Numbered from the stretch's first letter, positions 6,333 to 56,450 are shown. The stretch: 64,000 nucleotides of DNA from Bacillota bacterium (GCA_040766985.1 JAXGPL010000009.1:56963-120962); one strand, 5' to 3'. The notes: generated by a model from the letters alone, not told the origin. Made by a program: numbers and translations.

Positions 6333-6519
6333 CGTAACACGTCGGCGACCGGCCCCATTGCCCAGATATATCAGACAATTACGATTTGTCCTCTCACCTT
6401 TGAGTCAGTACCGCAAGTAATTGAAAAACATGGCGGAATTGCCCCTTAGAAAATGAAACCCCTTCCCGCACGACTCGTATCACTTCAGGTTTTCACACAC
6501 ACCGGACGCGAAGAAGAGG

Positions 6520-6744
6520 TTGGACATGATGCTCACACCCACCGAAGTCGTCCACGAAGGCACGATCGCCCCCGAGGTCGTCACCGGGCTGGTTAGAGAC
6601 CTCGGATCCCTAGGATACGAAGCACGGCCCGTACTCGTCCAACCCGGTGTCGCGGCCCGCGGCCCGAGGTGTGGCAGGGGATCCCGGTTCGGGCATGGCG
6701 ACCAGTGGCAAGTGGCGAGTTTCGGGACGCACAGCAACCTGTAG
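6520..6744 (+). CDS. small conserved protein A (copy 1) of duplicated cassette
   Basis: 74-aa ORF with an RBS (aagagg) behind an AT-rich island. Paralogous to ORF 20308..20523 along its whole length (EVVHEGTIAPEVVTGLVRDLGSL..GY...RCGRGSRF vs EVICDGSIGPRLATMMVRDRGQL..GY...RCALGTRL). Nucleotides are diverged, so coding selection is implied. Confidence 0.5.
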   Translation: MDMMLTPTEVVHEGTIAPEVVTGLVRDLGSLGYEARPVLVQPGVAARGPRCGRGSRFGHGDQWQVASFGTHSNL

Positions 6745-6804
6745 CAGCCGATACTACACAGTCGACACAATCCTCAGCACGTATAGCAGAAGGGAAGGAA
6801 GAAC

Positions 6805-6936
6805 ATGGACATCCAGGCGATCATCTCGAAGAAGCTCAACTCGTTCTACATTCCGAGCCTCAACACGACGATCACCACCGGCGATGATCCGACCGCCCAG
6901 GCCAATTGGCTTGACGGGACCCGGCTTTCCCGGTAA
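6805..6936 (+). CDS. small peptide B (copy 1): MDIQAIISKKLNSFYIPSLNTTITTGDDPTAQANWLDGTRLSR
   Basis: 43-aa ORF. Paralog at 20573..20710 shares the MDIQAI..KL start, a DDP motif and WLD near the C-terminus. Conserved RBS-like GAAGGGA.GGA upstream. Too short for the ORF track. Confidence 0.45.
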   Translation: MDIQAIISKKLNSFYIPSLNTTITTGDDPTAQANWLDGTRLSR

Positions 6937-7020
6937 GACACTGAAGGGAAGAACGACGCGGCACAGAACAGGAGAGCCCAAGGCTTTCCTGTTCTGCATC
7001 TTGGCCCGACGGAGGTGCAA

Positions 7021-13193: not shown

Positions 13194-13501
13194 TTGCCCA
13201 CCACACCCGAGGGCTCCGCTGCGCCGTTGACCGGTAGGACCTCCGCCCGCGCCGCGTATGCCGACCGGTCGGGCCCGCGGGCAGGCCGTACCTCGACCGG
13301 CTGCCCTTCGCACCATGCCCGGAGCGAGCGGTCGATCGCCGCAAACTCCCGGAGGCCGGACCGGGCTGCTGCGTCGGAACCGAGCAGCCGGCTGGCCCTG
13401 CGGAATGCCCAAGGCGGGGCCTGCTTGTCGACGATTGCCCAGAGCAGCAGGTCAACCGTGTCCGTAACTGCGCTGTGTGGCGTATCACCAGGCCGACGCA
13501 T
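13190..13501 (-). CDS. hypothetical protein, candidate anti-sigma factor (by position only)
   Basis: ~100 aa immediately downstream of and overlapping an ECF sigma gene. No zf-HC2 Cys/His motif. Confidence 0.35.
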   Translation of the reverse strand: MRRPGDTPHSAVTDTVDLLLWAIVDKQAPPWAFRRASRLLGSDAAARSGLREFAAIDRSLRAWCEGQPVEVRPARGPDRSAYAARAEVLPVNGAAEPSGVVGK

Positions 13502-14039
13502 TGCCGTCACCTCCGCCGGATGGTTCGGATAGCGCCTTCGCAAGCTTACCCCGTGCTGCCGCCAACCGTGACATCACCGTGCCTACCGGGCAGCCCAGCA
13601 GCCCGGCTATTTCGCGGTAGCGCAATCCCAGGAAGTAGTGCAGGACCAGAGGGACGCGCTGGGCGATGGGGAGTGCGCCGATTGCCAGGCGCAAGTCCAG
13701 ATGGTCGTCGTCGGTTTCTACCATGGATGATCCACCCTTGGCGACGACTGCATGGGCCAGCGCAGCCTCTTCGCGGTATTTCTTGCGGAGCCAATCCCGA
13801 AACCGGTTGCGCGCAACCTCCTTGAGCCAGGGCCGGAACGCCTGGGGGTCGTGCAGAGTGCTGAAATAGCGGCAGGCGACGGTCATCACTTCTTGCGCGA
13901 GTTCCTGACCCTCTTCGACATCCCCGGTGAGAGAGGCGCACATCCGCTGGACCCATGGGTAGTGGGCTTCGGCGAGGGCCTCGATAGAGCGGGCAGAGAC
14001 AGAAGCTGTAGCGGTTTTGCCGCCGAGGATCTCGGTCAC
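13485..14039 (-). CDS. RNA polymerase sigma-70 factor, ECF subfamily
   Basis: Region 2 (..RYFSTLHDPQAFRPWLKEVARNRFRDWLRKK) and region 4 (LPIAQRVPLVLHYFLGLRYREIAGLLGCPVGTVMSRL). Confidence 0.85.
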   Translation of the reverse strand: MTEILGGKTATASVSARSIEALAEAHYPWVQRMCASLTGDVEEGQELAQEVMTVACRYFSTLHDPQAFRPWLKEVARNRFRDWLRKKYREEAALAHAVVAKGGSSMVETDDDHLDLRLAIGALPIAQRVPLVLHYFLGLRYREIAGLLGCPVGTVMSRLAAARGKLAKALSEPSGGGDGNASAW

Positions 14040-14269
14040 GGCGAACCCCCTCCCAAACCCATTCTACTTACAGAGACGGACGGGGAAGGTGTTCTATTCG
14101 GCGAGGATTGCGTCTGCGTGGTAGTGCCAGAAGGACACACAGTCGTGTGGCGCGCTGTGGATCTCCCTCAGTTGACGGTGCGCCCTCAACGGGGCATTGA
14201 ACCCTCCGGCGCCGGGTGGACGCCAGTAGGGTCTTCTGCCCTCCAAGCCCGATGCAGCTGGGCCGGCCC

Positions 14270-14377
14270 TTACCACCAGCGGCGGTGGAACGGCGGACGG
14301 AACCACCAGAACCACGGCGGGAGAAAAGGCCAGCCGAAGAAGAACGGAAAGCCGAAGAACGGCCGCCTCCAGAACAT
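14270..14377 (-). CDS. 35-aa Trp/Phe/Pro/Arg-rich small ORF (MFWRRPFFGFPFFFGWPFLPPWFWWFRPPFHRRWW) with a perfect SD
   Basis: AGGAGGTG 7 nt upstream of ATG, TAA stop. Lies in an otherwise unassigned 415-bp spacer between the ABC-2 exporter operon and the ECF sigma gene. The underlying DNA is a purine-rich low-complexity tract, so a chance ORF is possible. Confidence 0.25.
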   Translation of the reverse strand: MFWRRPFFGFPFFFGWPFLPPWFWWFRPPFHRRWW

Positions 14378-18667: not shown

Positions 18668-19078
18668 GTGAACGCTATGCTGTTAAGCGGACGGACGCGT
18701 GTATCGAGCCGAGGGCAAGTGGTGATCCCAAAAGCTTTGCGGGATGTGGCTGGGCTGGTCGAGGGCGATGAGGTTGACGTGCTCTTCGACGGCGAGAGGA
18801 TATCGCTCTCCCGTGTTGAGCCCGATCAAGCAAGTAACCCTGCGGCTCCGGCCGGCCCTTGCGCGGCCGACCGGCTCGCTGAGGCCCGCACTCGGTACGG
18901 TCCCAGGCGAAGAGCACAGGCGACGCACGGCATATTGGGCGCGACCCCTGTCTCCTCCATCTGGGCGGACCGCATCGCGGCAGTTGCCGCGATCAGGCAG
19001 CTCTCAACCGAGTTCTCGGGGACCTCCGCAAGTGAGATCCTTCGTGAGTCCCGTGACGAGCTTGAGAGGCGGGGGTAG
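18668..19078 (+). CDS. AbrB/SpoVT-type antitoxin (VapB-like) with extended C-terminus
   Basis: SpoVT/AbrB swapped-hairpin motif (RGQVVIPKALRDVAGLVEGDEVDVLFDG) directly upstream of a PIN gene. Confidence 0.6.
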   Translation: MNAMLLSGRTRVSSRGQVVIPKALRDVAGLVEGDEVDVLFDGERISLSRVEPDQASNPAAPAGPCAADRLAEARTRYGPRRRAQATHGILGATPVSSIWADRIAAVAAIRQLSTEFSGTSASEILRESRDELERRG

Positions 19079-19082
19079 CTAG

Positions 19083-19541
19083 ATGGAGCTGCAGCCGGCG
19101 GTATCCGTTGACGCAAGTGTAGGGGCCAAGTGGTTTTGGCCTGACGAGGACGATTGCGGTGAGGCCTTGGCCCTTCTGGAGCTGTTCGGCGCAGGCAGGA
19201 TTGCCATTATCGTGCCTGAGCTCTTCTTCTCTGAGATGGGCAACCTGTTGCTGTCGCCGCCCGTCGCTTACAGGTACCCGCGGCCACCGCCCGTTGCGTC
19301 GCTCCAAGAGCTCGACCGGCTGGGGCTGGAGAGGTTCTCCTCCGCGGGTCAGCTGCGCTCGGCGATGGCTTTTGCCCAGCACCTCAGAGTGTCATTCTAT
19401 GACGCCCTATATCTCGCCACCGCCGAGGTGGCCGGAGTACCCCTGGTCACCTGTGACCAAAGGCTTGTCTCGACGGTTTCCGGCCAGTTGGATTGGGTGA
19501 TGAGCCCCACGGCCGCCCTCACGCGGTTCTATCCCAAATAG
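19083..19541 (+). CDS. PIN-domain ribonuclease toxin VapC
   Basis: VDASVGAKWFWPDE (first acidic residue) and YDALYLATAEVAGVPLVTCDQRL (C-terminal PIN motifs). Confidence 0.75.
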   Translation: MELQPAVSVDASVGAKWFWPDEDDCGEALALLELFGAGRIAIIVPELFFSEMGNLLLSPPVAYRYPRPPPVASLQELDRLGLERFSSAGQLRSAMAFAQHLRVSFYDALYLATAEVAGVPLVTCDQRLVSTVSGQLDWVMSPTAALTRFYPK

Positions 19542-19559
19542 CCATTGCCGGCAAGCCAT

Positions 19560-19992
19560 CGGAGAGATGCTTCCTCTTCGGCACACTCCAGCGTCATCGT
19601 GGCGGCCGGGGCCGAGCACGGCAATCCACTCCGCGACGGGCACCCGCGAGTTCTTGTTGGCGTGCCCCACATCCAGACATGCGGCGAACCGTCTGTCCGC
19701 GACCGCATCGACGAGGTCCCGCAGTATCTCGGGCCGTTCCTCACTCACGTTCTCTGGCCGGATCGACAGTGCCGGGATTAAGGTCGTCAAACGGGCCGTG
19801 AACCATCAGGCCTGTCTGGCCGCCCGCGGCGTAGCGCTTCGCGGCGTCTACGTGACCCGGATCATCGAGCCGCGAGGCAATAGAAAAGAGTCGAGGATCT
19901 CCAGTCCGAAGCCCCAGCGACCCGCGATTTCCTGAGCGTCCGCCGCAAACGTGTCGACATAGAGGCGCGACGTAATGTCGCAGTGCGCCATG
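19560..19992 (-). pseudogene. degraded sugar-phosphate isomerase/epimerase (xylose-isomerase-like TIM barrel) gene fragments
   Basis: Family-like pieces lie in three different minus-strand frames: MAHCDITSRLYVDTFAADAQEIAGRWGFGLEIL, then LDDPGHVDAAKRYAAGGQTGLMVHGPFDDL, then LDVGHANKN. The 3' end overlaps vapC. Confidence 0.4.
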
Positions 19993-20307
19993 GTCTCTCC
20001 TCTTTCCGGCATAGATCAGCCCCCGCTCTCTTATGCGCCCGGAGCCCGGGTTCTCCTCTCTTGCAGGATCTCTCCGAATCGGAAACCCGCCGCTCACCTG
20101 AAGCGTAGTACTCGTGCACCGACCTCACTTCGTGCCGGCCCAACCTGATTCCCGGTCCCGGCAGGTGTCCCCGCGCAAGATGTTGTTCCCAACATTAATT
20201 TTTACGTTGTTGAGGGTGCATTTTTTTGAACAAGGCGAAACAAATCATCAACTACCCAGTAGTACAGAGCACAAGTCACTCCAACGAGAGGATCAGGAGG
20301 TAGCCCC

Positions 20308-20572: not shown

Positions 20573-20710
20573 ATGGACATCCAGGCAATCGTCAACCGCA
20601 AGCTCGCTCGCAAAGGCAACGGCTTCAGCCCTGTATATGGTCAGACGCTCTTTGCCAACGACGACCCGCTCAGCCGATCGCACTGGCTCGACACGACAGG
20701 CCCCCGGTAA
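20573..20710 (+). CDS. small peptide B (copy 2): MDIQAIVNRKLARKGNGFSPVYGQTLFANDDPLSRSHWLDTTGPR
   Basis: 45-aa ORF, paralog of 6805..6936. The first 21 nt (ATGGACATCCAGGCAATCGTC) are near-identical to copy 1, and the RBS-like GAAGGGACGGGA is conserved. Confidence 0.45.
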   Translation: MDIQAIVNRKLARKGNGFSPVYGQTLFANDDPLSRSHWLDTTGPR

Positions 20711-21850
20711 CTGGTAGCAGGGTCATGCGCAATCAGGGAGGTGTGAGCCCTCCCCGATTGCGTCTTTACCTCCTTACCTGCCGGGCGTTCGCGGACGGCT
20801 CGCCGGGCATGCTGGTTCAATGCCGGCAGAGCTCCCTGGTCGAAAACGGAGATCCGCCAGAAGTACGCCTCCATGACCATCCGAAGCGCCCTTAGGGCGG
20901 CTTCTGGGGTCATCAGCCCCTCGCTTGCAGAGGAGCGGCCGCTGCTATCCCGGCAGTCTCTTGTGAAACCGTCCAGCAACGCCAGATAGCCCCGTAAGGG
21001 CAGTCGGACGGGCCGAATACCACCCGGCCATCGCACCTTACACTCTCGGAAAGCCAGTCGACCAGCACGAACCCTTGTCCCCCTCGATCTGCAGGTCTTT
21101 CCCAACCACGCCATGGCTCTTGCCCACGGAGAGCGTTACAATCGTGCCACCGGACTCAGCAGACGCCTCAAAGGCGGTTTCCGTGCGGTCTGGATGTGCG
21201 GGATCGTAGCCGGCCGCCTCGGCCCTAATAAAGCGCCAGTCTCTTCCCGGCATCAGCGTTAACAGGACCGACGCCAGATGGAATCCTGTGTCGATCCAGA
21301 CCCCGCCGCCGGAACGCTCGGGGTTGCGAAGCCACTCCCGGCCAAGAAGAGTGCCGGGGTCCTCAAGGATCCGTCCGCGCACCTCGCGGACCGGCCCGAT
21401 GGAGGCCACCAATTCGCTTCTGTGGCCGGTCAGAAATCGCGACGCGGGTTTTGCCAGATAGTGGTCCGCCACCCACAGTTGCGCTTGGGCCGTGCGCGCG
21501 AGACCAACGACCTGTTCTGCGTCCTTCAGCGTGTGCGCGATCGGTTTCTCCACAAGGCAAGGGCGGCGCGCCGTCTCCACTGCCCAGCGACTGTGGCGAA
21601 GGTGCAGGTTGTTAGGGGTTGCGACGATGACGCCAAGGTAGTCGCCCGGCGCCGGCACGCTGTCCAGTGAGCAGTAGTGGGCAATGACGTTGGGCGGTAG
21701 CGCGCTCCCCAAGCCCCGGGGGTCGACAACATCGGCCTGATAGCCCATCTCGCCCAGCGCGGGTAGAATCCGCTTGCGCCCAAGGTCTCCGGCTCCACCG
21801 ATGACCAGCAGTCTATCACCCATCCGCGCACCCTCCCCTGGAACGGACAT
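20641..21850 (-). CDS. Gfo/Idh/MocA family oxidoreductase (frame break near 21100; 3' end uncertain)
   Basis: N-terminal Rossmann GxGxxG (LLVIGGAGDLGRKRILPAL) and EKP motif (CLVEKPIA). The C-terminal family motif (EAALRALRMVMEAY) lies in a second frame (ORF 20641..21114). Confidence 0.65.
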
Positions 21851-24439: not shown

Positions 24440-24919
24440 GTGAACCGGCTGAGGCATGTCATGCTTCCGATAATCGTTGCGCTGCTCTTGCTGGCGGCCC
24501 CGGCGCATGCTCTCACGCCCCAAGATGCCTTCTACGTGAACGATTACGTCGGCCTGCTCAGCGCGGACAAGGCTGGCTACCTGGTGCAGAGGGGCGAGCG
24601 GCTGCGCGCCGAAAACGGTGTCCAGGTCGTGGCGGTCATAGTCGACAACTTCATCGGCGAGTCCTTCGACAGTTATGCCAACAAGGTGTTCAACGACTTC
24701 GGTATTGGCTCCAAGGGCGACAACAACGGCGTCATGTTGATCGTCAGCGTAGACAGCGGTGACGTCCGGATCGAAGTCGGCGATGGGCTAAGTGGTTTGA
24801 TCCCGGACTCCAAGGCCGGGGCCATCTTGATGACTACTTCTGCCTCCCGCCCGGGAAGACGATCTGGAGACGGCCGTGTACGACACATACCTCAAGCTGG
24901 TCGCTGAGGGAGCCGGCTA
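24440..24919 (+). CDS. TPM-domain (TLP18.3/Psb32/MOLO-1 phosphatase-like) secreted protein; two single-base frame breaks near 24826-24835
   Basis: Signal peptide plus TPM motifs (GVQVVAVIVDN..., GVMLIVSVDSGDVRIEVGDGLSGLIPDSKAGAIL). The natural continuation ..DDYF / LPPAREDDLETAVYDTYLKLVAEGAG* sits in the other two frames. One missing g in ttgg and one missing c in ttcc would restore a single ORF. Confidence 0.7.
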
Positions 24920-24930
24920 GCACCGGCGGA

Positions 24931-25536
24931 GTGCCGGTTGACCCTCCCGAGACATCCGGGTCCAACGCGTTCCTGTTCGCGATTATTGGCTTTGTGCTGG
25001 TCTTGTTCGGTATCATGCTGGTGATGGCGGCGCGGCGGACGTCTCGCCAGGCCGGACCGCCGTCGTATCCGCAGTACCCTTCCCAGGGACCGAGCGGTAA
25101 CCGGCCGAGCCAGACGAGCCAGCCGCAACATCCGGCTGGGGGAGGGTACATACCGATCGGGCCGATCCTCCGTGGCTATCGGCCCAGTTCAACCAACCGG
25201 CAACCGCAGTCCCGGCCTTCCACCGGCGGCACGCGGCCGGCGGGCGGCGGGACGTCAATCCCCTGTTCCCGGGTCGGCTCAGCAGAGATACCAGCAAGAA
25301 CCGGGGTGGGGGCGGTCAATCGTCTGGTGGAGGGGCGAGCCGGGGCCTGTTCGGTGGGTTCGGTTCCGGGTCGGCCGGCAGTAGGGGTTCGACCAAACGG
25401 AGCGGCGGTTCGATTTTCGGCGGCGGCGGCAGATCGTCGGGCCTCGGTGGTGGCGGGCGTTCATTTGGTGGCGGCGGGCGTTCCTCCGGCGGAGGCGGTC
25501 GCTCGTCAGGCGGTGGGGCAGGGCGCGGTTTCAAAT
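24931..25536 (+). CDS. membrane protein with Pro/Gln-rich linker and Gly-rich C-terminal tail (TPM-associated); frame break near ~25260
   Basis: TM helix NAFLFAIIGFVLVLFGIMLVMAA. A Gly-rich tail (GGGGQSSGGGASRGLFGGFGSGSAG...GGGGRSSGGGAGRGFK*) is readable in a second frame ending at 25536. Typical partner/extension of TPM proteins. Confidence 0.4.
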
Positions 25537-25583
25537 AGGCATCGACATAACCAACAGAGACAAAGCCGAGGGGGAAGAAGCAA

Positions 25584-26240
25584 ATGGGTAAGATGCTGGA
25601 CAACTTCAGGGCATGGTGGAACTCCGTTGCCGATTCATTGGGGGATCCCGGCAAGCTCGCTCAGCTGTCGGTAGCCGACCTTGAGAGGGCCATTCGCAAG
25701 GCCAAGGAAGCGGCTGCGCCAATCATCGGTAGGCCGGCTGCGCTTGAGGATTCCGTCAAGGACCTGGAGAAGACGGACGAGGAATTGACCCAACGGATCA
25801 CGGCGTTGATCGCAGCAGGCGAAGAGGGACAGGAAGCTGCCCGCAAGTACGTTACGCGTCAAGTCGTTGTGCGCAAGCAGTTGGAGGCTACCCGTGAGGA
25901 CTTTGCGGACGCCACCGCTGCAGCGGCGGAGTGGCACGACAAGATCCGTGTGCTGGAGCACGAGCTCTACAACCGCCGCCACGAAGCCAACAGGCTGCAG
26001 GCGGAGTACGAGACGGCAAAGGCTGAGCAGCGGCTGGGCAGGGAGATGCGCCGGGCCGACGCCGTGTACGGGTCGGACAACTTCAGCTCAATCAAGGCCA
26101 GGGTTGATAACGAGAAGGCCAAGGCGGCCGGATACTCGGTGATGTCAGGCCTGTCCGAAAAGGCCAAAGAAACCCGGCTGATCGCCGACTTCGAAACCGA
26201 TGCCCTGATGAAAGAGTACATGGGCAAGGCCAAGAAGTAG
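25584..26240 (+). CDS. PspA/IM30 (phage shock protein A / Vipp1) family protein
   Basis: 218-aa coiled-coil protein. The N-terminal MGKMLDNFRAWWNSVADSLGDPGKLAQLSVADLERAIRKAKE matches the PspA N-terminus. Confidence 0.85.
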   Translation: MGKMLDNFRAWWNSVADSLGDPGKLAQLSVADLERAIRKAKEAAAPIIGRPAALEDSVKDLEKTDEELTQRITALIAAGEEGQEAARKYVTRQVVVRKQLEATREDFADATAAAAEWHDKIRVLEHELYNRRHEANRLQAEYETAKAEQRLGREMRRADAVYGSDNFSSIKARVDNEKAKAAGYSVMSGLSEKAKETRLIADFETDALMKEYMGKAKK

Positions 26241-30329: not shown

Positions 30330-31164
30330 TTGCCGCTTGTGGGTCAGCAGCCAGCTCGCAGGTGGATCCAACCCCGGGACCTCGACGATGCTCGCCCGGC
30401 CGGTCAACTGCGCCAGCCCACGTAGTACCGCCCTGGCGAGCTGGTCGCTGCTCTCTTGGGCAGACGGCAGGAATAGGACCGGGCAACGAATCCGCCTGTA
30501 GTACTCCTCGAAGCGGTAACCGAAGTAGTGGCGCATGTAATCCAGCAGGTATTCGGCAAATCCATAGCAGAACCGCCCGGGCTCGACCTCCCGGATTCCA
30601 TACCGGACCATCGCCTCGAACGAAGGGTTCCAGAAGCCCTGGTTTTGGTACTTCTGCCTCTCGTGGACCAGCGATTCATCGACGGTCCCGAAGGTTGGCC
30701 TGCTCCGTGTAGCAATCTTGTCGATCGTCGCGGCGGCGTGGGCCTGAGAACCCAGCTTCGCTTCCCTGCCACAGGCTGTAGGGGCCGTACTCACTCGCGC
30801 TTGCCCCATCGCAGGTGATGGAGATGATCCTGTCCGGGTGGTTGGCGGCCAGAGCGACCGCGGTTTCTGCGCCCATCGAGCTGCCGACAATGTGCGCGCG
30901 CTCAATGGAGAGCACATCCATTGCCGCCACCACATCCCCCGCCAGGCTGTCGATGTGGTAGCCGGACGTAGGCCTATCCGACTTGCCATGTCCGCGCAGG
31001 TCGAGAAGCACCGGCCGGTATGGTTCCGTGAAGAAGGGCACGACCCCGTCCCACACCATGAGGTTTCCGCCGCCAAAGTGGAGGAAAACGATTGCTGGGC
31101 CTTCGCCAGGGTATTGCCTGACCTGCAGCCGGATATCGCCGACTGCCACCGTGTGATCGTGCAT
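30330..31164 (-). CDS. alpha/beta hydrolase fold protein (frame break near ~30750; 3' end approximate)
   Basis: N-terminus VFLHFGGGNLMVWDGVVPFF...LDLRGHGKSD and nucleophile elbow GSSMG are in ORF 30676..31164. The C-terminal part (RIRCPVLFLPSAQE...IVEVPG) is in the frame of ORF 30129..31361. Confidence 0.6.
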
Positions 31165-31323
31165 CGGCAGACCTCCTGTTGCCAGGGCTTTGAGGGTAGC
31201 GGTGATACTACGGGGTATCCTGGCGATTGGTTCCGGTCCTTCACGGGTGCGCGACGGTTGCGGCGGCCTCCGCCTGCCTCCGCCTGCCTCGGCCGATTTT
31301 TGCCGTCACTGGAGATCGATTGG

Positions 31324-31854
31324 CTAGTTGTCGCCCTGGTTGAGAAGGCCGGCCTTTTCAAGGGCGCCGCGTACCGCGGTGGACAAGGGGATCGCCACGA
31401 TCAGCCCAGCAGCGGAGGTCATCAGCGACGCTGGAGCGTTGCCCAGCGCTGCCTCCCAACGGCCGATCACGGCGGACCACGCCACGAGGTATCCGACGAG
31501 GGTCCACGCCGCTCCAGCGACGCACGCGATCAGGTTGAGGATGATGCTCCTCCCCCTGGCGCCGCCCGAGTGAGCGACGGAACCGACGACAAGACCAGCG
31601 ATGCCCTTGATCACGAACGACCAGAGAGTGTAGGGCGAGAACCCCATGATGATGTCGAAGAACGCGGAGCCGATCGCCCCCGCGTATCCGGCGTAGACAC
31701 CGCCGAACAGGATGCCCGACGTGAATATCGCGGCGCTCCCCAGGTGGACCATCGCACCGCTGCCGAAGGGAATCTTAATCATGGTGGCGATGATCAGCAG
31801 GGCAGACAGCATGCCGATCACAGCCATGTCGCGGACCGTGAGTTTGGGTTTCAC
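31324..31854 (-). CDS. ECF transporter S (substrate-specific) component, likely vitamin B6 (PdxU-like)
   Basis: 176-aa, 5-6 TM protein with an S-component-like N-terminus (MKPKLTVRDMAVIGMLSALLIIATMIKIPFG). Immediately downstream of pdxK. Confidence 0.65.
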   Translation of the reverse strand: MKPKLTVRDMAVIGMLSALLIIATMIKIPFGSGAMVHLGSAAIFTSGILFGGVYAGYAGAIGSAFFDIIMGFSPYTLWSFVIKGIAGLVVGSVAHSGGARGRSIILNLIACVAGAAWTLVGYLVAWSAVIGRWEAALGNAPASLMTSAAGLIVAIPLSTAVRGALEKAGLLNQGDN

Positions 31855-32698: not shown

Positions 32699-33030
32699 CG
32701 AGTGAATCGCCGCGACCTTCGGTACCGCGCTACCGGACAAGAAGACCCCTCCGCGCAAAGCAAAATGCCCCGGGAGAAACCCCAGGGCATAGGTCGTCAG
32801 GCGATCCATCGGAACGCAGTGAGACTGCGTTTGGTGAAAGTCTCCGCCCATCCAGACTTTACTGCCGGTACCGGATTCACACCGGTTCAACTGCTGGGGC
32901 TGTTGGACTTGTCCCCGCCGCCAGGCGAGGCATCACCGCCGATTGGGAATTGGGCCATAGCCCTCACCCTGCCCTGAAGACTCCGCACTCACATTATAGC
33001 GCAAGAGGTTCCTTCTCTGCAGGCGCTTCT

Positions 33031-45849: not shown

Positions 45850-48800
45850 TCAGATATCCAGAGCGTTGACCAGAGCCGTGAGAGCTTCCGCCCTGGTGGC
45901 GTTGCCGTGAGGCCGCACGGTGTTGTCGGGATATCCCTTCAGGATCCCCGCCTCTGCAGCGGTAGCCACTGCGTCAACCGCCCAATTCGAGATGTCGTCT
46001 CCGTCCGCGAAGCCGGTGGCGCCGGTGACCACGTCAAGATCCAATGCCCGGACAATCATCGTCGCCATCTGCTCGCGGGTGATCCGGTCGTCGGGGCCAA
46101 AGCTGTTGCCCCCGTATCCCTCGACAATCCCCAGGGCCGCAGCCACGGAAATGCTGTCCTTGGCCCAGTGATCGGCGGTGTCGGCAAAGACCGCGCCCGT
46201 CTCAGCAGTCAGCTTGAGGGCCTTTACCAGGATGGTAGCAAACTCCGCCCTGGTAATGGTTGCGTCGGGCCGGAAACTGCCGTCGGGATAGCCGGTTACC
46301 ACCCGTGAGGACACCAGTTCTTCGATATTCGCCTGAGCCCAATGCCCCGCGATGTCATTGAGGGCGGGAAGGGCGATCAGCTCGATGCTCGCGATCTGCG
46401 AGACCGACATTGAGCCGCTCACAGACGGGCCCACCAGCCGGAGCGGCCAGTTGCTGTCCGACTCGGGAATCGCGGCCCCGTTGAGCGTGTTGGCCACTAT
46501 GTAGTCGCTGTTGCGGATGATGTCCCTGCTGCTGATCGTGACCGAATACCCGTCCGCAGCCGTGACCGCCACTAGGTATCCCGTCGAAGCGAGTTGTTGG
46601 TTGAAGGCATTGTCGGTGTGCTTATCCGCGTCATCAACAAATCCCGCGAGGAACCAAAGGGGCATGCCTTCCCAGACGCGACCCTTCGAGTCCGTGAACG
46701 ACGCCTTGTGGTTCGCTCCGAACTGGCATGCGAGCGCCTGTTCAAAGTAGGTCTTGTTGATGTCTTCCTTCAGGCCGCCGACGGATTGGCCATCAAGCTT
46801 CAGAGTCCAATCGTTCACGGGGACCGCGAAGACCTCAATCTTGGTTATGTACTTTGCGGACAGGCCTGCGCACGACGGGTACTGGACGTTGTCGGCGTAG
46901 TAATAGTGCCAGTACTTCTCGGGCAAGGTCTCGTGCATATCCCACTGCCCATACACGTGGTCGCCGCCAGGCGCGAAGAACAAACGCATGCCGTCCTTGT
47001 ACCCCGGCACGTATTCGCCGTCGCCCCACCAGGCCAGAATGGCGTCGCCCTGGCGAGCCTGGACCGCCGGATCCGGGTAGATGGAGGAGTACGGCAGCGT
47101 TGTTTCATAGCCGTCATCGGCGACGAACACGATCTCCGTGCCTGACCCCATACCGCCGACAAGGTCGCAGAGGTCGCTGACCCGGGTGCCCTTGACGGCG
47201 TTCTCGATCTTGAAACCGCCGGGATAGGTCTCCGCCTGATCCCAGACGTCAGCCGGATTGCTGGTAATTCCCTCGTAGCGGTACTTCGTCACCCCGTCGC
47301 CGACTACGGGAAGGTTGGCTTCCATCCATAGATAGTCGACGGTCTTTTCCTCGACGACGGTGGTCTGGTCCGCGCCGTACTTGACGATATGGAGCTCCGG
47401 TATCGGAAGAGCCGTCTCAAACTCGATGAGTTCGATCTCGGCGATATTCCCGACGCTGGTTCCGCTGAACGTGCCGTCGGGCCTGATGACTCCCTGACCG
47501 ACTAGCCGTAGCGGCCCGGACTCCGTCAGCGCCTGCCCATTGAGCTTGTCAGCCACAATGTAGCTACTGCTGTTGGCGATGTCCGCGCTCGCGAACTCCT
47601 TGGCGTATCCATCCCCGGCCTTTACTACTACGGTGTAACCGGCCTGAGCTTGAGTGAAGCTAAACGAGTGCGGCTCGCGGTCATCCACCCAGCCGGCCAG
47701 GAACCAGAGGGGCATGCCGGACCAGACATTGCCGTCATTGTCCGTCCACTCCAAGAGGTGCCCCGAATTCGGGCAGGCGAGGCCGGCCTCGAACTCAGCC
47801 TTGGCGAAGACATCAGTGATCTTGCCGGTCAGGCTAAGGTTCCAGCTCCCGGCCCCGGCAGGGGGCGTAAGCAGTTCGGGGATCGCAATCTTGGCGATCT
47901 GACCAACCGCGGAGCCGCCGAGGCTGCCATCGTCCTTGGTGACGCCGGAACCGACCAGGCGGAGCGGCCACGCATCCGTGAGCGGCGCTCCGTTGACCTT
48001 GTTGGCGACGATGTAGTCGTCGCTTCCGGCGATGTCGGCACTGGTGAACGTCTTGGTAAACCCATCTGCAGCTGAAACCTCGACGCTATAGCCGTCGGCC
48101 GCCAACTGCTGGTTGAAGGTCCACCCGCTGCCCGGCTCGATGTCGTCGACTACGCTCACCAGAACCCAGAGCGGCACGCCCGACCAGACGTTACCGTCCT
48201 TGTCGGTCCACTCGCGGTAGAAACCCGAAGTCGAGGAGGCCAGATCGCTCTCAAACTCCTCTTGGGTGAGCGTGTCTCCTATCTCGCCGGACATTTCCAG
48301 GGTCCAGCCCTCGGTGGGCACGGGGAGGTCGGAAAGCTCGATCTTGACGATGTTGCCGACCTGTTGTCCGCCGAGCACCTCGGGGCCCTTAAGGTGAAGC
48401 GGCCAGCAATCCTTGCCGCTCGCGGTCTGCTCCGGCAGGGGATCTCCGTTGAAGGTATTGGCGACGATGTACCCGGCGTTGCGCGCGATCGCCGAGCTGT
48501 CGAACGTGGCTGACCACCCGTCGCCCGCGATGACATTGACCTTGTAGTCCTGGGCGGCCAGGCTGTCGCTGAAGTTGATGTGATCGCTGCCGGCATCAGG
48601 GTCATCGTCGACCATGCCGACCAGCAGCCAGAGTGGAACCCCGCCCCAGACGTTGCCTTCGGGGTCCGTCCAGTTGACCTGGTGCCCTGAGGCCGAACAC
48701 GCGAGGCCTTGCTCGAAGTACGCCCTGGTAACGCTGGACGCCTTGGCCCCAGTGAGCTGAAGCGTCCAGTCTCCGGTGGGCGCCGGTGGCGCAGTCCCGG

Positions 48801-49320
48801 TGGATGCGACGGTCTTGACGGCCGCTGTTGCTGCGGCCTTGACGGCGCTGAGGTCTGTCTCATCGTCGATGCCGGCGGCGTAGTAAAACTCAACCCGGTC
48901 GCCGGCATGCAGCTCGATGAGGTTGAGGGCGCCGGCGGCGTTGTTGTAGCCGTCCTTGAAGACGTCGTTGACATAGGCGAACCACTTGCTGCCGCCCTTG
49001 ACGTAGCCATAGGTGCCAATATTGTCCAGCAGGAGTGCGCCGGATGCCCCGATGTTCTTGTCTGTCACATCAAAGGAGAACCCTCCGGCGACACCGGCCG
49101 CACGAAGGGCCCCAAGCGGCGTCGCTTCGCTGACCTCGTACGAGGCTCCGGAGTTGTAGGCAGTCACGCTGAAGTTGCCGGTGGGGGACAGCACAACTGT
49201 GCCTTCGAAAAGCACATCGATTGTCATTGCACTCGCCTGCGCCGGCGACAACAAGACCGCTATCGCCAACAGCAGGGTAAACAGCTTTCTGCCGAATCCC
49301 TTTCGCGTAAGGTAGTTCAA
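45850..49320 (-). CDS. large S-layer-homology (SLH) surface protein with 4-5 tandem SO-family-like repeats, an X domain and 3 C-terminal SLH domains
   Basis: Sec signal peptide. Four ~150-aa repeats (WTLQLTG...WGGVPLWLL...DGWSATF...GDPL...WPLHLKGPEV...VGNIVKIEL and variants). Central X domain (TVDYLWMEANLPVVGDGVTKYRY...KYITKIEVF). Three SLH domains (IAGHWAQANIEELVSSRVVTGYPDGSFRPDATITRAEFATIL...). Confidence 0.8.
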   Translation of the reverse strand: MNYLTRKGFGRKLFTLLLAIAVLLSPAQASAMTIDVLFEGTVVLSPTGNFSVTAYNSGASYEVSEATPLGALRAAGVAGGFSFDVTDKNIGASGALLLDNIGTYGYVKGGSKWFAYVNDVFKDGYNNAAGALNLIELHAGDRVEFYYAAGIDDETDLSAVKAAATAAVKTVASTGTAPPAPTGDWTLQLTGAKASSVTRAYFEQGLACSASGHQVNWTDPEGNVWGGVPLWLLVGMVDDDPDAGSDHINFSDSLAAQDYKVNVIAGDGWSATFDSSAIARNAGYIVANTFNGDPLPEQTASGKDCWPLHLKGPEVLGGQQVGNIVKIELSDLPVPTEGWTLEMSGEIGDTLTQEEFESDLASSTSGFYREWTDKDGNVWSGVPLWVLVSVVDDIEPGSGWTFNQQLAADGYSVEVSAADGFTKTFTSADIAGSDDYIVANKVNGAPLTDAWPLRLVGSGVTKDDGSLGGSAVGQIAKIAIPELLTPPAGAGSWNLSLTGKITDVFAKAEFEAGLACPNSGHLLEWTDNDGNVWSGMPLWFLAGWVDDREPHSFSFTQAQAGYTVVVKAGDGYAKEFASADIANSSSYIVADKLNGQALTESGPLRLVGQGVIRPDGTFSGTSVGNIAEIELIEFETALPIPELHIVKYGADQTTVVEEKTVDYLWMEANLPVVGDGVTKYRYEGITSNPADVWDQAETYPGGFKIENAVKGTRVSDLCDLVGGMGSGTEIVFVADDGYETTLPYSSIYPDPAVQARQGDAILAWWGDGEYVPGYKDGMRLFFAPGGDHVYGQWDMHETLPEKYWHYYYADNVQYPSCAGLSAKYITKIEVFAVPVNDWTLKLDGQSVGGLKEDINKTYFEQALACQFGANHKASFTDSKGRVWEGMPLWFLAGFVDDADKHTDNAFNQQLASTGYLVAVTAADGYSVTISSRDIIRNSDYIVANTLNGAAIPESDSNWPLRLVGPSVSGSMSVSQIASIELIALPALNDIAGHWAQANIEELVSSRVVTGYPDGSFRPDATITRAEFATILVKALKLTAETGAVFADTADHWAKDSISVAAALGIVEGYGGNSFGPDDRITREQMATMIVRALDLDVVTGATGFADGDDISNWAVDAVATAAEAGILKGYPDNTVRPHGNATRAEALTALVNALDI

Positions 49321-52088: not shown

Positions 52089-55000
52089 TCAGGGTATCAG
52101 CCGGACCTCGAACTGCTCTACCTGACCGGTCTCGTTGCTTGTGATGCAAATCCGGTACACACCAGGGTCAAGCTTCTTGGTGGACCAGTTGAACACCCAC
52201 ATGAGTTCCTTGGCTTCATACCTGAGACCTGTCTTGCCAGGCGTGGCTACGGGGCGGAGTTCGGGCCCCCCAACCAAGCTGATGGTGATCGCCGGATTGG
52301 CCGTTGAGCTAGGTACGACTGCGCCCTGGAAGTCGGTGTACCGCCATCTCAGCGGTAATACCGCCCCAACCTTGGACACTCCCTCCGCGTTGTCGAAGGG
52401 GGCCAGGAGGCCTGTCATCCCGTAGTGGATCGAAAGACTGTCTCCGCCGTATTGGAGATCGTAGTCGGCCGGCAACGCGAGCGTTCCCAGCCGGATAGCG
52501 TAGATACCAGGTTTTTCGCCCGGATCCCTTGCCAATGTACCGGTGAAGTCGTCTCCGGTGACCAAGCTTCCCGATGCGACCCTGTAGGTCAGGATCGGGT
52601 CGTCCTCACCGTACAGCTTGGTCTGGGCGTCCGCGACGACCACGACCTGCCGGTGCATGATCGTTAACTGTGCTGCCACGTAGGTGAGTTTGTAGTTTGC
52701 GCTCAGAGCCAGGCTGCCCTGGCGGATTTCGTAGCGCCCGACGGCCTCGCCGGTTTCCCGGGTCAAGGTGCCCGTGAATCCGTCTGAGAACGAGAGGCTG
52801 CCGTCCGCTATATGGTAGGTAAGGTCGGGGTCTGACTGGCCGTAGATCTTGGTCTTCGCGTCCGCGGTAACGGTGACGGGCCTGGGAACGATGCTAAGGG
52901 CCGCAGGCTCGAACCGCAGATCGTAGTTGCTGTTGATGTCAATGTCGCCCCGCGCGATGCAGTAGGTGCCCACATCTTCGCCGCCTTCGCGGCTTGGGCT
53001 GCCACTGATCACGTCCCCGGGCACCACACTGCCCGAGGTGATCTGATAGGTCAAGGGCGGGTCGTCCTCGCCGTAGGTCTTCGTCTTTGGTTCGGCGGCA
53101 ATGCAGATGGACCTCGGCGTAATGGTGAAGTCTGCCGGCACATAGGTGACGGCATAGTTGTCGCCGAGGGTCAGAGTGCCCTGCAGGATCTCGTAGACGC
53201 CCACGTTCACGCCGGCCTCACGGCTCAGCGCCCCTGTGAACGTGTCCGCAAAGGCTATGCTGCCGGCCGTGATCCGGTACGTGAATTCCGGATCGCTATC
53301 GCCGTAGATCTTGGATAGCCCGGGATCTGCGGCCACCGTAACCGGCCTGGCTGTGATCGTGAGGGCCGCCGGTACGTAGGTCAACGTGTAGTGGTCGCCA
53401 AGGGCCAGGGTCCCCTGGTTGATCGAGTAACTGCCGGCATCTTCGCCCGCCTCGCGAGCGAGCTCCCCAGTCAAGTCGGCGGGCGAAACCAGGCTACCCC
53501 CTATGATCTGATAGGTAAGGGCCGGGTCGCTGTCGCCGTAGGTCTTGCTCTTGGCGTCGGCGGCAACGGTGACGACCCGCCGGGCAATGGTCAGGGTGCC
53601 CGGGACGTAGCTCAGCTGGTAGTTGGGGCCAAGCGCAACGCTGCCTTGGCCGATCGTGTATTCACCCGGCGCCTCACCCTCCTCGCGGGCGAGCGCCCCC
53701 GTAAAGGCGTCCGCGAACGCGAGGTTTCCGGACATAACCTGATACGTCAGGTCGGGGTCGCTGTCGCCGTAGGCTTTGATTTTGGAGTCGGCCGCAATGG
53801 TCACCGGCCGTGGCGAGATCGTCAGACTTGCCGGGGCATAGCTCAGCGTGTAGTTGGCGCTGAGAGCCAGGCTGCCCTGTGAAATCGGGTAGGTACCTAC
53901 TGCTTCGCCTGCGGCACGGCCGAGAGCGCCGCTGAATCCGTCGGTGAACGCCAGGCTACCCGACGTGATCGTGTATGTCAGAGGCGGATCGAGGTCGCCG
54001 TACGTCTTGCCCGCCGCGTCGGCGGAGACCGTGACCGGTTTCGGCGAGATGGTCAGGTTGGCCGACACGAAGGTAATCGCGTAGTTGTCGTCAATTGCGA
54101 CTGTGCCCTGCTGGATCGAGTAACTGCCGGTACCTTCGCCGGCCGACCGGGTTAGGGCGCCGCTGAATCCGTCGGACGGCAACAGGCTTCCCGAGGCTAT
54201 GTGATAGGTGAACGGGGGGTCGGCATCCCCGTAGACCTTAGCCGCCGGGTCAGCCGCGATGGTTATCGACCGCAATGAAATCGTCAGATCGGCCCCCACA
54301 TAGCTAAGCGCGTAGTTGGAGCTGAGGGCAAGGTCGCCCTGCCTGATCGGATAGGTCCCCGCTGATTCGCCTGCATCCCGCGTCAATGCACCGGTAAACT
54401 CGTCCTGTGAAACCACGCTTCCCGACGTGATCCGATACGTTAGCGCCGGGTCAACCTCTCCGTAGTCCTTGGCCTTGGCGTCGGCGGTAACTGTAACCGG
54501 CCTCGGCGATACGGTCAGAATACCCGGCACGTAGGTCAGTCTGTAGTTGGAGTTGAGCGCTACCGTGCCCTGCTGGATCTCGTAGCTCCCGACGTTATCT
54601 CCGGGCTGGCGAATGAGGGTCCCCGTGAAGGTATCCGCCGACACGAGACTCCCGGAGGTGATCTGGTACGTCAGGGCCGGGTCGGGATCACCGTAAGCCT
54701 TGGCCTTCGCCTGGGCGGTGATCGTCACAGGCCGGGGCTCGATTGTCAGGTTGGCCGGAATGTATGTCAGGGCGTAGTTGTTGCCCGGCGAGACGTAAAA
54801 GTAGGTGTTGGATATCTGGTACTGGCCCAGCTCCTCGCCGGCGACCCTACGCAAGCTGATCCATATGCGGTCCGAGCCGACCAGATCTCCAGATGAGATC
54901 TGCCAGGTCAGGGCCGGGTCCGCATCTCCATAGGGCTTGTTCCTGCCGTCGGCGGCGACCGTCAGCGGCCGCTGCTCAACCGTCAGGTAGGCCGGGACAA

Positions 55001-56450
55001 ACGTGACGGCATAGTTGTCACCCAGGGTCAAGGTTCCCTGCCCGATGGTATAGCTACCGGTGTTCTCCCCAGCGGCCCGGGCCATCGCGCCCGAGAACGC
55101 GTCACCTTCAAGCAGGCTGCCCGACGTGAGTTGGTACGTGAGTTCGGGGTCGGGCTCGCCGTAGACCTTGGATTTTGCATCCGCGGTAACGGTCACCGGA
55201 CGGCGGTTGATCGTCAGCCATCCGTCGGCATAGGTGACGGAGTAGTTGGCTGCCGCCAGGTCACCCGAAAGACCAATCCGATATGTGCCGGCGTCGAAGG
55301 CAGCGACGGCGTCGCCGCTGTACGTGACCGACCCAGAGAGGACGCCGCCGTCCTCGCCAGTGATAAACCCTGAGCATCCGAACTCAAAGCCATCGTACGG
55401 GAATACCTGACCATCGTAGAGCTTGCTCCTGTCAAGCGCGGCAACGGTCAGGGCTTTGCGGTTCACGGTCAGCCTTGCAGGGCTGCTTGCTGCCGGATCA
55501 CCGAAGCCATTGTCAAAGATACACCGGTAGAGATACCCGTCCCAAGCGACGGGCGGCCGGGTGATCGTCATCCGGGTTGACGTCTCCCCGGCGACGTCGG
55601 CCCAGGTCAGGCCATCGTCGGCGCTAACCTGCCACTGTATCGCGGGCCAAGGTGCGACAACGCCGTTGACCGCCGCGTAGAACTGGGCGTCCTGGCCATA
55701 GGTGACCGTCTGATCAACCGGGTTGACTACGACGACAGGTGCTGAAACGCCCTCGGGGTGGACCGCGATCATCTCCGCCAACCAGTAGTCGCCTGAACCC
55801 GTGGCGATCCGGCTTCCCGTCAGGCCTCCTATCCGCTCTTGCGTGGAGGCCAAGATACCCATCTGGGGCATGTGTGCGTAGTAGTGGTATCGCACGGTCA
55901 TGCCGGCGTCGGTGGGGGCCATCGAGGTCCCATACTTCATGGCGTAGACTGCCTGAATCACTGTGCCGGCAGGGACATTGATGTCGGGAGCGAGCATTTC
56001 GCCCCCGGCCCCCATGTTGATCGAGGAGCCGTACGCGTCATGGGCGCCTGTATATCGGATGATCGCCCCACACCAATCCAGAAATCCTGTTTCATAGCCG
56101 GTTGCCGAAAACATATACTGGCTAGGCTCGTCGGGTCCGGCGCGCCTTACGAAAGTCGCCATCTCATGCAGGTCCAGATACCTGGACACGCTTAGCCGAC
56201 GCCAGCCGTTGGGTGTGTCAATCCAGGGACTTGAGTAGTCGAGACGATACACTATCTGGGCAACCAGCAGGTCGCCTTCCACCGTGTTGGCCGGTTTGGC
56301 CAGCCAGAACTGGCTGGAGTTGCGCACTTGGGAAGCGGTGACGTCGCCCGGCCCGGACCACACCGTCGGAGCCGCCTCCGCCGCAACGGTGACTCCTAGC
56401 AGTACCAATGACAGAATGGACGCAATCAACAAGGTTCTTCGCATCGGCAT
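52089..56450 (-). CDS. giant secreted protein with ~12 tandem MBG (YGX-type) repeat domains and Ig-like N-terminal region
   Basis: Signal peptide MPMRRTLLIASILSLVLLGVTVAAEA. Repeats fit the MBG-domain pattern (K.YGD.DP.LTYQ..SGSL..D.F.G.L.R.AGE.VG.Y.I.QG.LAL..NY.L.Y.PA.LTI) about 12 times. 1453 aa. Confidence 0.8.
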   Translation of the reverse strand: MPMRRTLLIASILSLVLLGVTVAAEAAPTVWSGPGDVTASQVRNSSQFWLAKPANTVEGDLLVAQIVYRLDYSSPWIDTPNGWRRLSVSRYLDLHEMATFVRRAGPDEPSQYMFSATGYETGFLDWCGAIIRYTGAHDAYGSSINMGAGGEMLAPDINVPAGTVIQAVYAMKYGTSMAPTDAGMTVRYHYYAHMPQMGILASTQERIGGLTGSRIATGSGDYWLAEMIAVHPEGVSAPVVVVNPVDQTVTYGQDAQFYAAVNGVVAPWPAIQWQVSADDGLTWADVAGETSTRMTITRPPVAWDGYLYRCIFDNGFGDPAASSPARLTVNRKALTVAALDRSKLYDGQVFPYDGFEFGCSGFITGEDGGVLSGSVTYSGDAVAAFDAGTYRIGLSGDLAAANYSVTYADGWLTINRRPVTVTADAKSKVYGEPDPELTYQLTSGSLLEGDAFSGAMARAAGENTGSYTIGQGTLTLGDNYAVTFVPAYLTVEQRPLTVAADGRNKPYGDADPALTWQISSGDLVGSDRIWISLRRVAGEELGQYQISNTYFYVSPGNNYALTYIPANLTIEPRPVTITAQAKAKAYGDPDPALTYQITSGSLVSADTFTGTLIRQPGDNVGSYEIQQGTVALNSNYRLTYVPGILTVSPRPVTVTADAKAKDYGEVDPALTYRITSGSVVSQDEFTGALTRDAGESAGTYPIRQGDLALSSNYALSYVGADLTISLRSITIAADPAAKVYGDADPPFTYHIASGSLLPSDGFSGALTRSAGEGTGSYSIQQGTVAIDDNYAITFVSANLTISPKPVTVSADAAGKTYGDLDPPLTYTITSGSLAFTDGFSGALGRAAGEAVGTYPISQGSLALSANYTLSYAPASLTISPRPVTIAADSKIKAYGDSDPDLTYQVMSGNLAFADAFTGALAREEGEAPGEYTIGQGSVALGPNYQLSYVPGTLTIARRVVTVAADAKSKTYGDSDPALTYQIIGGSLVSPADLTGELAREAGEDAGSYSINQGTLALGDHYTLTYVPAALTITARPVTVAADPGLSKIYGDSDPEFTYRITAGSIAFADTFTGALSREAGVNVGVYEILQGTLTLGDNYAVTYVPADFTITPRSICIAAEPKTKTYGEDDPPLTYQITSGSVVPGDVISGSPSREGGEDVGTYCIARGDIDINSNYDLRFEPAALSIVPRPVTVTADAKTKIYGQSDPDLTYHIADGSLSFSDGFTGTLTRETGEAVGRYEIRQGSLALSANYKLTYVAAQLTIMHRQVVVVADAQTKLYGEDDPILTYRVASGSLVTGDDFTGTLARDPGEKPGIYAIRLGTLALPADYDLQYGGDSLSIHYGMTGLLAPFDNAEGVSKVGAVLPLRWRYTDFQGAVVPSSTANPAITISLVGGPELRPVATPGKTGLRYEAKELMWVFNWSTKKLDPGVYRICITSNETGQVEQFEVRLIP

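Follow-up and report, generated by a model that had tools for sequence, protein, structure and literature searches.

A putative bicistronic operon of two small, lineage-restricted proteins with an ECF-type promoter motif in a Bacillota bacterium

Introduction

Several described systems of small bacterial genes offer points of comparison for the subject of this study, two diverged copies of a pair of short genes, here called A and B, in a 64,000-nucleotide stretch of a Bacillota bacterium genome (GCA_040766985.1, JAXGPL010000009.1:56963-120962), hereafter the window. The sspN-tlp and sspO-sspP operons of Bacillus are bicistronic units for minor small acid-soluble spore proteins (SASPs), with products of about 45-80 aa. 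Prochlorosin precursors (ProcA) are encoded at scattered sites, away from their maturases, NepR and CnrY are class II minimal anti-sigma factors, and the targets of sigma-W are mostly membrane or detoxification proteins. In the consensus for extracytoplasmic function (ECF) sigma factors of B. subtilis, a -35 element tGAAAC is combined with a -10 element that reads CGTA for sigma-W and CGTC for sigma-M and sigma-X (PMC5758882).

The A-B loci resemble each of these systems in part. With the sigma-W regulon they share the promoter architecture TGAAAC-N16-CGTA (PMC5758882) and compact, stress-type transcription units, yet A and B lack Bacillus homologues and are predicted to be soluble. Like sspN-tlp and sspO-sspP, they would form a two-gene operon for small hydrophilic proteins, flanked by a dedicated promoter and terminator, and their host lineage is probably spore-forming, but neither A nor B matches these families, and the A-B promoter is not of the sigma-G or sigma-F type. 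The likeness to prochlorosins lies in multiple, diverged small open reading frames (ORFs) with conserved and variable segments; unlike ProcA, the A-B loci have no maturase that could be found nearby and match no precursor family, and B is conserved at both termini. Finally, B recalls NepR and CnrY by functional analogy only, in its very small size, its two predicted helices joined by a linker and its apparent ECF-type control, whereas it does not lie beside a sigma gene, and NepR and CnrY have no A-like partner.

We propose that each cassette works as a self-sufficient bicistronic operon, complete with promoter, two genes and a terminator-like hairpin. Its ECF-type promoter, read by an alternative sigma factor (-35 GAAAC or GGAAC, 16-17 nt, -10 CGTA), would be followed by a leader of about 40 nt, gene A, a spacer of 49-70 nt that bears its own ribosome-binding site, gene B, and a hairpin resembling an intrinsic terminator. 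Envelope or oxidative-type stress would switch the operon on through an ECF sigma factor, and its two products would act jointly as a heteromeric pair that co-evolves, with a small regulatory or protective module more probable than an enzyme or a secreted product. On balance we lean towards this account as a whole, that is, towards an ECF-sigma-driven, lineage-restricted bicistronic operon whose genes encode two small cytoplasmic proteins that co-evolve. Nothing is unusual in an architecture of alternative-sigma promoter, two small genes and terminator, and the analysis demonstrates no new mechanism.

Two diverged copies of a conserved gene pair

An earlier note on this DNA, made from the sequence alone, had described a cassette of two small ORFs in two copies that are homologous although their DNA has diverged. 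The ORFs lie where that note placed them, with a 60-nt spacer, a B1 of 43 aa and an A1 of 74 aa if translation begins at TTG 6520. Gene callers choose ATG 6526 (72 aa), and the orthologues of A1 begin at an ML equivalent to ATG 6529 (71 aa), the start given in Table 1; the stop is at 6744. A1 and B1 share one reading frame, separated by two stop codons, and the spacer between A2 and B2 measures 49 nt. The A proteins are 31% identical and the B proteins 40% (pairwise E 2e-10 in each case), and likeness between the two loci at the DNA level is confined to 36 nt at the ribosome-binding site and start of B. Tblastn with all four proteins found no third copy in the window, which thus holds two loci only. 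An RNA element was considered as the source of the nucleotide conservation at the B start and rejected, because the invariant residues there use preferred GC-rich codons.

The ratio of non-synonymous to synonymous substitution (dN/dS) was estimated by the Nei-Gojobori method, by comparing the window genes with orthologues in metagenome contigs of a related organism. For all four genes the in-frame ratio is far below 1 (Table 1), with differences concentrated at third codon positions (31 of the 45 that separate A2 from its orthologue in locus L006), while the remaining two frames give ratios of about 0.9-3.8. The GC content at third codon positions (GC3) of the four ORFs, 0.72-0.84, is like that of other genes of the window, and a purine-rich Shine-Dalgarno sequence, conserved in site, precedes every A and every B. 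By this pattern of substitution A1, B1, A2 and B2 are evidently real genes under purifying selection. It could be objected that the ORFs are not genes, and that the conserved unit is a non-coding RNA or a set of chance ORFs, as all four are short, spurious ORFs abound in high-GC genomes such as this one, and A1 is overlapped by an antisense ORF (6480-6770). However, the low ratios belong to the named frames only, protein homology survives where the DNA has diverged, starts, stops and Shine-Dalgarno sites are conserved, and Rfam gives nothing at E<=1 bar one chance miRNA match, so that no RNA family was found in either locus. On these comparisons we regard non-coding explanations as excluded. 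A minus-strand ORF that overlaps B2 (20641-21114) is probably spurious, having no counterpart in L006.

Both cassettes have syntenic orthologues, with about 80-85% amino-acid identity, on contigs of the related organism. Those of locus 1 (L001 and L002) show the order nitroreductase, A, B, DUF4332, and the window has the same two neighbours, a nitroreductase upstream and a DUF4332 protein downstream, as the earlier note had reported. Those of locus 2 (L006 and L007) show the order AP_endonuc_2 (-), A, B, minus-strand ORF, GFO_IDH_MocA (-). Given orthologues of both copies and the low in-frame dN/dS, the duplication must be older than the split between the organisms, and neither copy is decaying. 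A recent segmental duplication, against which the divergence of the DNA had already been held to argue, is dismissed because the two copies have different neighbours, and a separate syntenic orthologue in the related organism corresponds to each. The second A-B pair of the window lineage thus appears to be an old, diverged and strongly constrained paralogous copy.

A shared promoter motif and terminator-like hairpins

Nine loci retain DNA upstream of A, and in all nine we found the motif [T/C]G[A/G]AAC-N16/17-[C/A]GT[A/T], with a spacing of 16 nt in six and 17 nt in three. It stands 67-75 nt before the start of A in eight of these loci; in the ninth, L008, it lies at -156, with a second copy at -276. 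The motif of cassette 1 is an exact match to the sigma-W consensus TGAAAC-N16-CGTA and is kept in L002 while the flanks diverge; the -10 element of cassette 2, AGTA, reads CGTA in its orthologue L006. Across the orthologue alignments the hexamer and a CGTAT block are conserved and the surrounding intergenic DNA is not. CGTAT is also, when sought without any prior, the most widely shared 5-mer of the -110 to -21 regions (seven of eight), a level reached in about 0.1% of shuffles (p about 0.001).

The motif is closely tied to A genes. Over 248 kb (the window and the loci, both strands), 12 of the 14 matches to a relaxed pattern fall within 300 nt upstream of an A gene. With a matrix derived from the sites, the two cassettes score 21-22 bits and rank as the top two in the window, where all others reach at most 15.8 bits; the best position-weight-matrix match is the cassette 2 promoter. 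The strict motif occurs three times in the window, twice before cassettes, and no sigma-70-like promoter was found in the upstream region of either cassette.

The motif lies within both AT-rich islands, which appear to be promoter regions, as the earlier note had supposed. The island before A1 does belong to one of the two lowest-GC 120-nt stretches of the window, but the figures attached to it need correction: the window is 62.3% GC rather than 65%, and 6340-6500 is 48% GC rather than about 45%. Taken together, these features indicate that the A-B operon is probably under ECF-type control.

A sigma-I-type factor might read the motif instead, which would place the operon in a regulon that senses heat or polysaccharides. 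Sigma-I promoters combine an A-tract -35 element with a -10 element CGWA, and SigI3 of C. thermocellum uses CGTA (PMC10575876); moreover, AAACCCC follows the -35 element in several of the A-B sites. The element common to all loci is, however, G[AG]AAC (GGAAC in four of them), with no A-tract, and neither sigI nor rsgI was seen in the window, itself only partly annotated. The shared G[AG]AAC element therefore favours an ECF sigma factor, and we consider a sigma-I-type regulator very unlikely. Under ECF-type control, the sharpness and conservation of the motif would make the operon a practical entry point for experiments on an ECF-type regulon in organisms without genetics.

The window contains two ORFs that match ECF sigma models, at 13485-14039 (-) and 56617-57276 (-). 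The former was considered as the cognate regulator and is not supported, because no motif lies upstream of it. Just upstream of the same gene is a 35-aa mini-ORF (14269-14376, -) in which nearly every residue is W, F, P or R (MFWRRPFFGFPFFFGWPFLPPWFWWFRPPFHRRWW). The latter is SigZ-like, and its match covers the C-terminal part of the model only; its start may be mis-set, or the gene may be truncated. The third strict match to the motif (GRAAC-N17-CGTA, 31209-31234, -) lies about 45 nt upstream of a short alpha/beta-hydrolase-like ORF (30676-31164, -), possibly a member of the same regulon. The distal motif before A2 (Table 1) could be a second promoter or an element of the divergent AP_endonuc_2 gene.

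At the other end of the operon, a strong hairpin follows B in every locus for which 3' sequence is available, and four such hairpins, folded singly, have z-scores of -3.5 to -4.8. The stem of the hairpin after B1 shows a compensatory change (C>A with G>T) in L002, and L006 carries an equivalent of the hairpin after B2. Both cassette hairpins are missed by a simple terminator scan because their T-tracts are weak. A further hairpin, GC-rich and placed between A and B (for example GATCAACGGCC..GGCCGCGATC), is found in one clade (L012, L014, L016 and L020), where whole-spacer folds are about -14 to -21 kcal/mol; it is absent from the window copies, and might tune the expression of A relative to that of B.

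Table 1. Features mapped in the two A-B cassettes, in window coordinates.
Feature	Position	Strand	Details
AT-rich island before A1	6366..6485	+	GC 0.425; second-lowest-GC 120-nt stretch of window; holds promoter
Cassette 1 promoter (candidate)	6454..6479	+	-35 TGAAAC (6454-6459), 16-nt spacer, -10 CGTA (6476-6479); -35 start 75 nt before A1
A1 Shine-Dalgarno	6515-6519	+	AGAGG
Gene A1, 71 aa	6529..6744	+	dN/dS 0.34 vs L002; GC3 0.75; N-terminal beta-hairpin and disordered basic tail (AlphaFold2 model)
A1-B1 intercistronic spacer, 60 nt	6745..6804	+	bears B1 ribosome-binding site GAAGGGAAGGAAG
Gene B1, 43 aa	6805..6936	+	dN/dS 0.26; GC3 0.84; among 9 B clusters in 5.8e9
Hairpin after B1	6964..6996	+	15-bp stem, 3-nt loop; 51-nt stretch 6955-7005: -26.2 kcal/mol, z -4.4
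Distal second motif	20081..20107	+	GGAAAC-N17-CGTA, 227 nt before A2; GGAAAC-N17-CGTAGTAC conserved at L006 1508-1534
AT-rich island before A2	20176..20295	+	GC 0.40; lowest-GC 120-nt stretch of window
Cassette 2 promoter (candidate)	20236..20261	+	-35 CGAAAC, 16-nt spacer, -10 AGTA; -35 start 72 nt before A2
Gene A2, 71 aa	20308..20523	+	dN/dS 0.07 vs L006; Shine-Dalgarno GGAGG
Gene B2, 45 aa	20573..20710	+	dN/dS 0.18 vs L006
Hairpin after B2	20727..20763	+	54-nt stretch 20722-20775: -23.7 kcal/mol, z -4.6

Distribution, co-occurrence and genomic setting

Word-indexed profile searches of 5.8 billion protein clusters returned four clusters of A and nine of B, and a full HMMER search, with the A profile against 1.84 billion representatives, added three distant A proteins, P0008 (E 9e-8), P0009 and P0012, each with a small B ORF 63-70 nt to its 3' side. 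Two further profile-search matches, P0010 and P0011, were discarded as repeat-protein artefacts. A scan of metagenome DNA yielded one extra locus, L016; P0018 led to locus L020, whose A has a GTG start and had not been called, and P0016 to locus L022, where the end of A is still visible at the contig edge. The more divergent B proteins keep a recognizable form, reading VDINAIISNKI...DNPGTEAWWLD...NPR in L008 and MNIQAIINKKL...GDDPASQASWLD in L014. In all ten distinct loci, which fall into three clades, A is followed by B in the same order, 49-70 nt apart, and the co-conservation for which the earlier note had proposed a search is thereby borne out. Two scans of 185,579 GTDB species genomes with B patterns gave no relatives, and the pair is absent from plasmids by tblastn and from viral contigs by a contig scan. 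As far as these searches reach, the A-B family is tiny and appears restricted to a rare, uncultured lineage. This extreme rarity, like the ECF-type motif and the hairpins after B, had gone unremarked in the earlier note.

The chromosomal setting of locus 1 is conserved as well. L008 and L017 share the order guaA, ahcY, MTA phosphorylase, amidohydrolase, dnaE ... darA ... A-B, and in the window dnaE, a DUF3108 protein, a membrane protein and the nitroreductase precede A1-B1. Synteny places the pair after dnaE in three clades, and a fixed site downstream of dnaE appears to be that of the ancestral A-B copy. In the clade with the GC-rich spacer hairpin, a convergent gene for a metallopeptidase of 386-410 aa, M1-type by Pfam, always lies 3' of B (L014 2646-3878, L016 6212-7444 and L022 351-1511, all on the minus strand); the L016 protein shows the HEXXH motif as HETAH. 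Neither the window copies nor the A-B pair of L008 has such a gene beside it.

A GerA/GerB/GerC germinant-receptor operon lies about 3 kb from A-B in L008, and the host lineage is therefore probably a high-GC (60-64%) endospore-former. Sporulation-type small proteins were among the candidates of the earlier note, and A and B could indeed be spore-associated, as minor SASP-like or coat-associated proteins expressed by a sporulation sigma factor in the manner of sspN-tlp and sspO-sspP. The germinant receptors, the small bicistronic unit and its small hydrophilic products agree with that suggestion. The sporulation -10 consensus, however, is CATA for sigma-K and sigma-E and CATnnTA for sigma-G, whereas the second base of the A-B element is always G (CGTA, AGTA or CGTT), with G[AG]AAC as its -35 partner, and A and B match no SASP, Ssp or coat family. 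Of the earlier suggestion, then, only the GerA operon of a related host stands, the promoter being ECF-like and not like those of sigma-F, sigma-G, sigma-E or sigma-K, and a spore-associated role is decidedly unlikely.

Properties of the A and B proteins

Conservation of A is concentrated in its N-terminal 26-28 residues or so, which follow the pattern ML..xE[VAT][VIL]x[EDQ]Gx[IVL]xPx[VLI]x[TS]x[LM]x[RQ]xxG. The AlphaFold2 (AF2) model folds this segment into a beta-hairpin, with strands at residues 3-10 and 17-24 and a predicted local distance difference test score (pLDDT) of 86-89, and leaves residues 30-72 disordered (pLDDT <50). In most members the hairpin is acidic (pI about 4.4-5.5) and the tail basic (pI 9.5-12), the corresponding values for the cassette 2 pair being 6.5-8.0 and 7.0-8.3. 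Gly, Arg, Ala and Pro abound in the tail, which has an RGxRCxR motif whose Cys is missing in L008; the tail varies between clades, and between close orthologues is conserved to the same degree as the hairpin. B is near-neutral and hydrophilic, without a signal peptide or transmembrane segment. Its ends are conserved (N-terminal MDIQAIINKKL, C-terminal GDDPxxQAxWLDxTxLPx[KR]; Phe replaces the Trp in P0018) around a variable middle of 15-23 residues, and its AF2 model, of low confidence, consists of two short helices at residues 3-12 and 29-39, which correspond to the conserved MDIQAIINKKL and DPxxQAxWLD, with the variable middle as their linker. From these features both A and B are predicted to be soluble, cytoplasmic small proteins.

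Nothing credible was found for A and B from all clades in Pfam, NCBIfam, PADLOC or PHROGs, the best match being a PHROG of unknown function at E 0.004; no Pfam or NCBIfam entry was matched even at E<=10. A profile search of the PDB gave nothing for A and only matches at E>0.6 for B, and Foldseek comparison of the A model with the PDB returned chance matches of 20-residue hairpins only (E>=3). Judged by these five resources (Pfam, NCBIfam, PADLOC, PHROG and PDB), A and B appear to be new protein families without detectable relatives, and the earlier label of an uncharacterised small-protein system is a fair one. Two resemblances were pursued and set aside. The 'ML..V..G.I.PE' pattern of A suggested a relative of CsrA or of AbrB/MazE, for which hhalign, run against mini-alignments of these families, gave a probability of 0.1%. 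The DP...W.D of B recalls a ComX-type precursor, and B was considered as a pheromone precursor of that type; such precursors have a comQ isoprenyl transferase gene beside them and an invariant, modified Trp, whereas B has no ComQ-like neighbour, and its Trp is not invariant.

The conserved and variable segments of B had been read as the leader and core of a precursor peptide. More broadly, A, B or both might be precursors of ribosomally synthesized and post-translationally modified peptides (RiPPs), each with a recognition segment and a variable core, and their enzymes might be encoded elsewhere in the genome, as for prochlorosins. The 28 conserved N-terminal residues of A before a variable tail, the conserved N-terminus of B before its variable middle, the two diverged paralogous copies, and variable regions that differ by clade yet are kept between orthologues would all suit such precursors, if loosely in the case of A. 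Nevertheless, B is conserved at both termini, no patterned enrichment in Cys, Ser or Thr marks the variable regions, the L008 clade lacks the one Cys of A, P0018 has Phe in place of the B Trp, neither protein has a double-glycine motif or a signal sequence, and no precursor model of NCBIfam or Pfam is matched. Furthermore, YcaO, radical-SAM, lanthionine synthetase and lasso enzymes are absent within about 10 kb of the pair in the window, L003, L008 and L017, the lineages with long contigs, and the annotated neighbours in L018 and L019 likewise include no modifying enzyme; homologues beside RiPP enzymes, which the earlier note had suggested looking for, were thus not found. With no RiPP enzyme nearby in any lineage, the leader/core reading is not supported, and we hold RiPP precursors with distant enzymes to be highly improbable.

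A toxin/modulator pair had also been mooted. In such a toxin-antitoxin-like module A would be the antitoxin, its disordered tail wrapping around B, a tiny toxin; the two-gene arrangement, the folded N-terminus and disordered C-terminus of the upstream protein, the parallel divergence of A and B, and a VapBC pair that adjoins cassette 2 could be cited in its favour. Yet no toxin or antitoxin domain was found with Pfam, PADLOC or PHROGs, the comparison of A with AbrB/MazE fails in hhalign, and B is hydrophilic and only 43-51 aa long. The chromosomal position of the pair, after dnaE, is fixed and syntenic across clades, and plasmids and viral contigs lack it; its genes do not overlap but stand 49-70 nt apart, and both are served by a separate ribosome-binding site; and its promoter is of the ECF type rather than an autoregulated sigma-70 promoter. 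The suggestion is not supported by these comparisons, and we give it very little credence.

How, then, might A and B act? Strict co-occurrence, parallel divergence of the paralogous pairs and folded parts of a size unlikely to be stable alone are weak grounds for supposing that A and B form a complex, a proposal to which we assign an even chance. That the pair has a regulatory or protective role in the cytoplasm is more tentative, and we put it forward as rather doubtful. A more novel reading, which we find unlikely, would make A-B either a self-contained, ECF-linked switch or precursors of an undescribed class of RiPP with distant enzymes. As a switch, B would be a minimal two-helix inhibitor that binds a sigma factor, in the manner of NepR or CnrY, or another target; its cognate antagonist would be A, built of a beta-hairpin and a basic disordered tail; both would be transcribed by the sigma factor that they modulate, and the co-diverged duplicate pairs would constitute two insulated channels.

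Several points weigh against the favoured account of an ECF-driven operon for a co-evolving protein pair. The motif was derived from these same loci and is in that sense post hoc; it is absent upstream of both ECF sigma genes of the window; and sigma-I promoters likewise have a -10 element of the form CGWA (PMC10575876). The alignments supplied to AF2 were shallow (7 and 9 sequences), the B model is of low confidence, and the function of A and B is unconstrained by any homology. What the analysis delivers is a well-delimited orphan small-protein pair under clear purifying selection, with candidate promoter, genes and terminator mapped. Should A and B turn out to form a minimal regulatory pair, they would rank with the smallest two-component protein switches so far known; otherwise they would join the many conserved small-protein families whose function is unknown.

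Other features of the window

Beside cassette 2, the gene for AP_endonuc_2, a xylose-isomerase-like TIM barrel, is broken up across three or more frames in the window (19407-20097, -), and its counterpart in L006 (647-1405, -) is an intact gene of 252 aa; the split gene is either a pseudogene or an assembly error. It is adjoined by the VapB/VapC(PIN) pair (18668-19541), which is absent from L006. Farther along, within 24440-26240 (+), a TPM-domain gene appears to continue into a long Gly-rich tail of the GGGRS type, and directly 3' of it lies a PspA/IM30 gene (25584-26240), with a weak match to the relaxed motif at 26192, inside the 3' end of pspA. An FMN riboswitch (32836-32985, -) scores 66.9 bits, just over the Rfam gathering score of 66.2, and lies upstream of minus-strand ORFs that include a membrane protein (31324-31854). 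Lastly, two long minus-strand ORFs match known models in their C-terminal parts only, one of 1156 aa (45850-49320) through a NEAT/LRR-family segment and the other of 1453 aa (52089-56450) through a PxKF domain, and their products may be cell-surface proteins.

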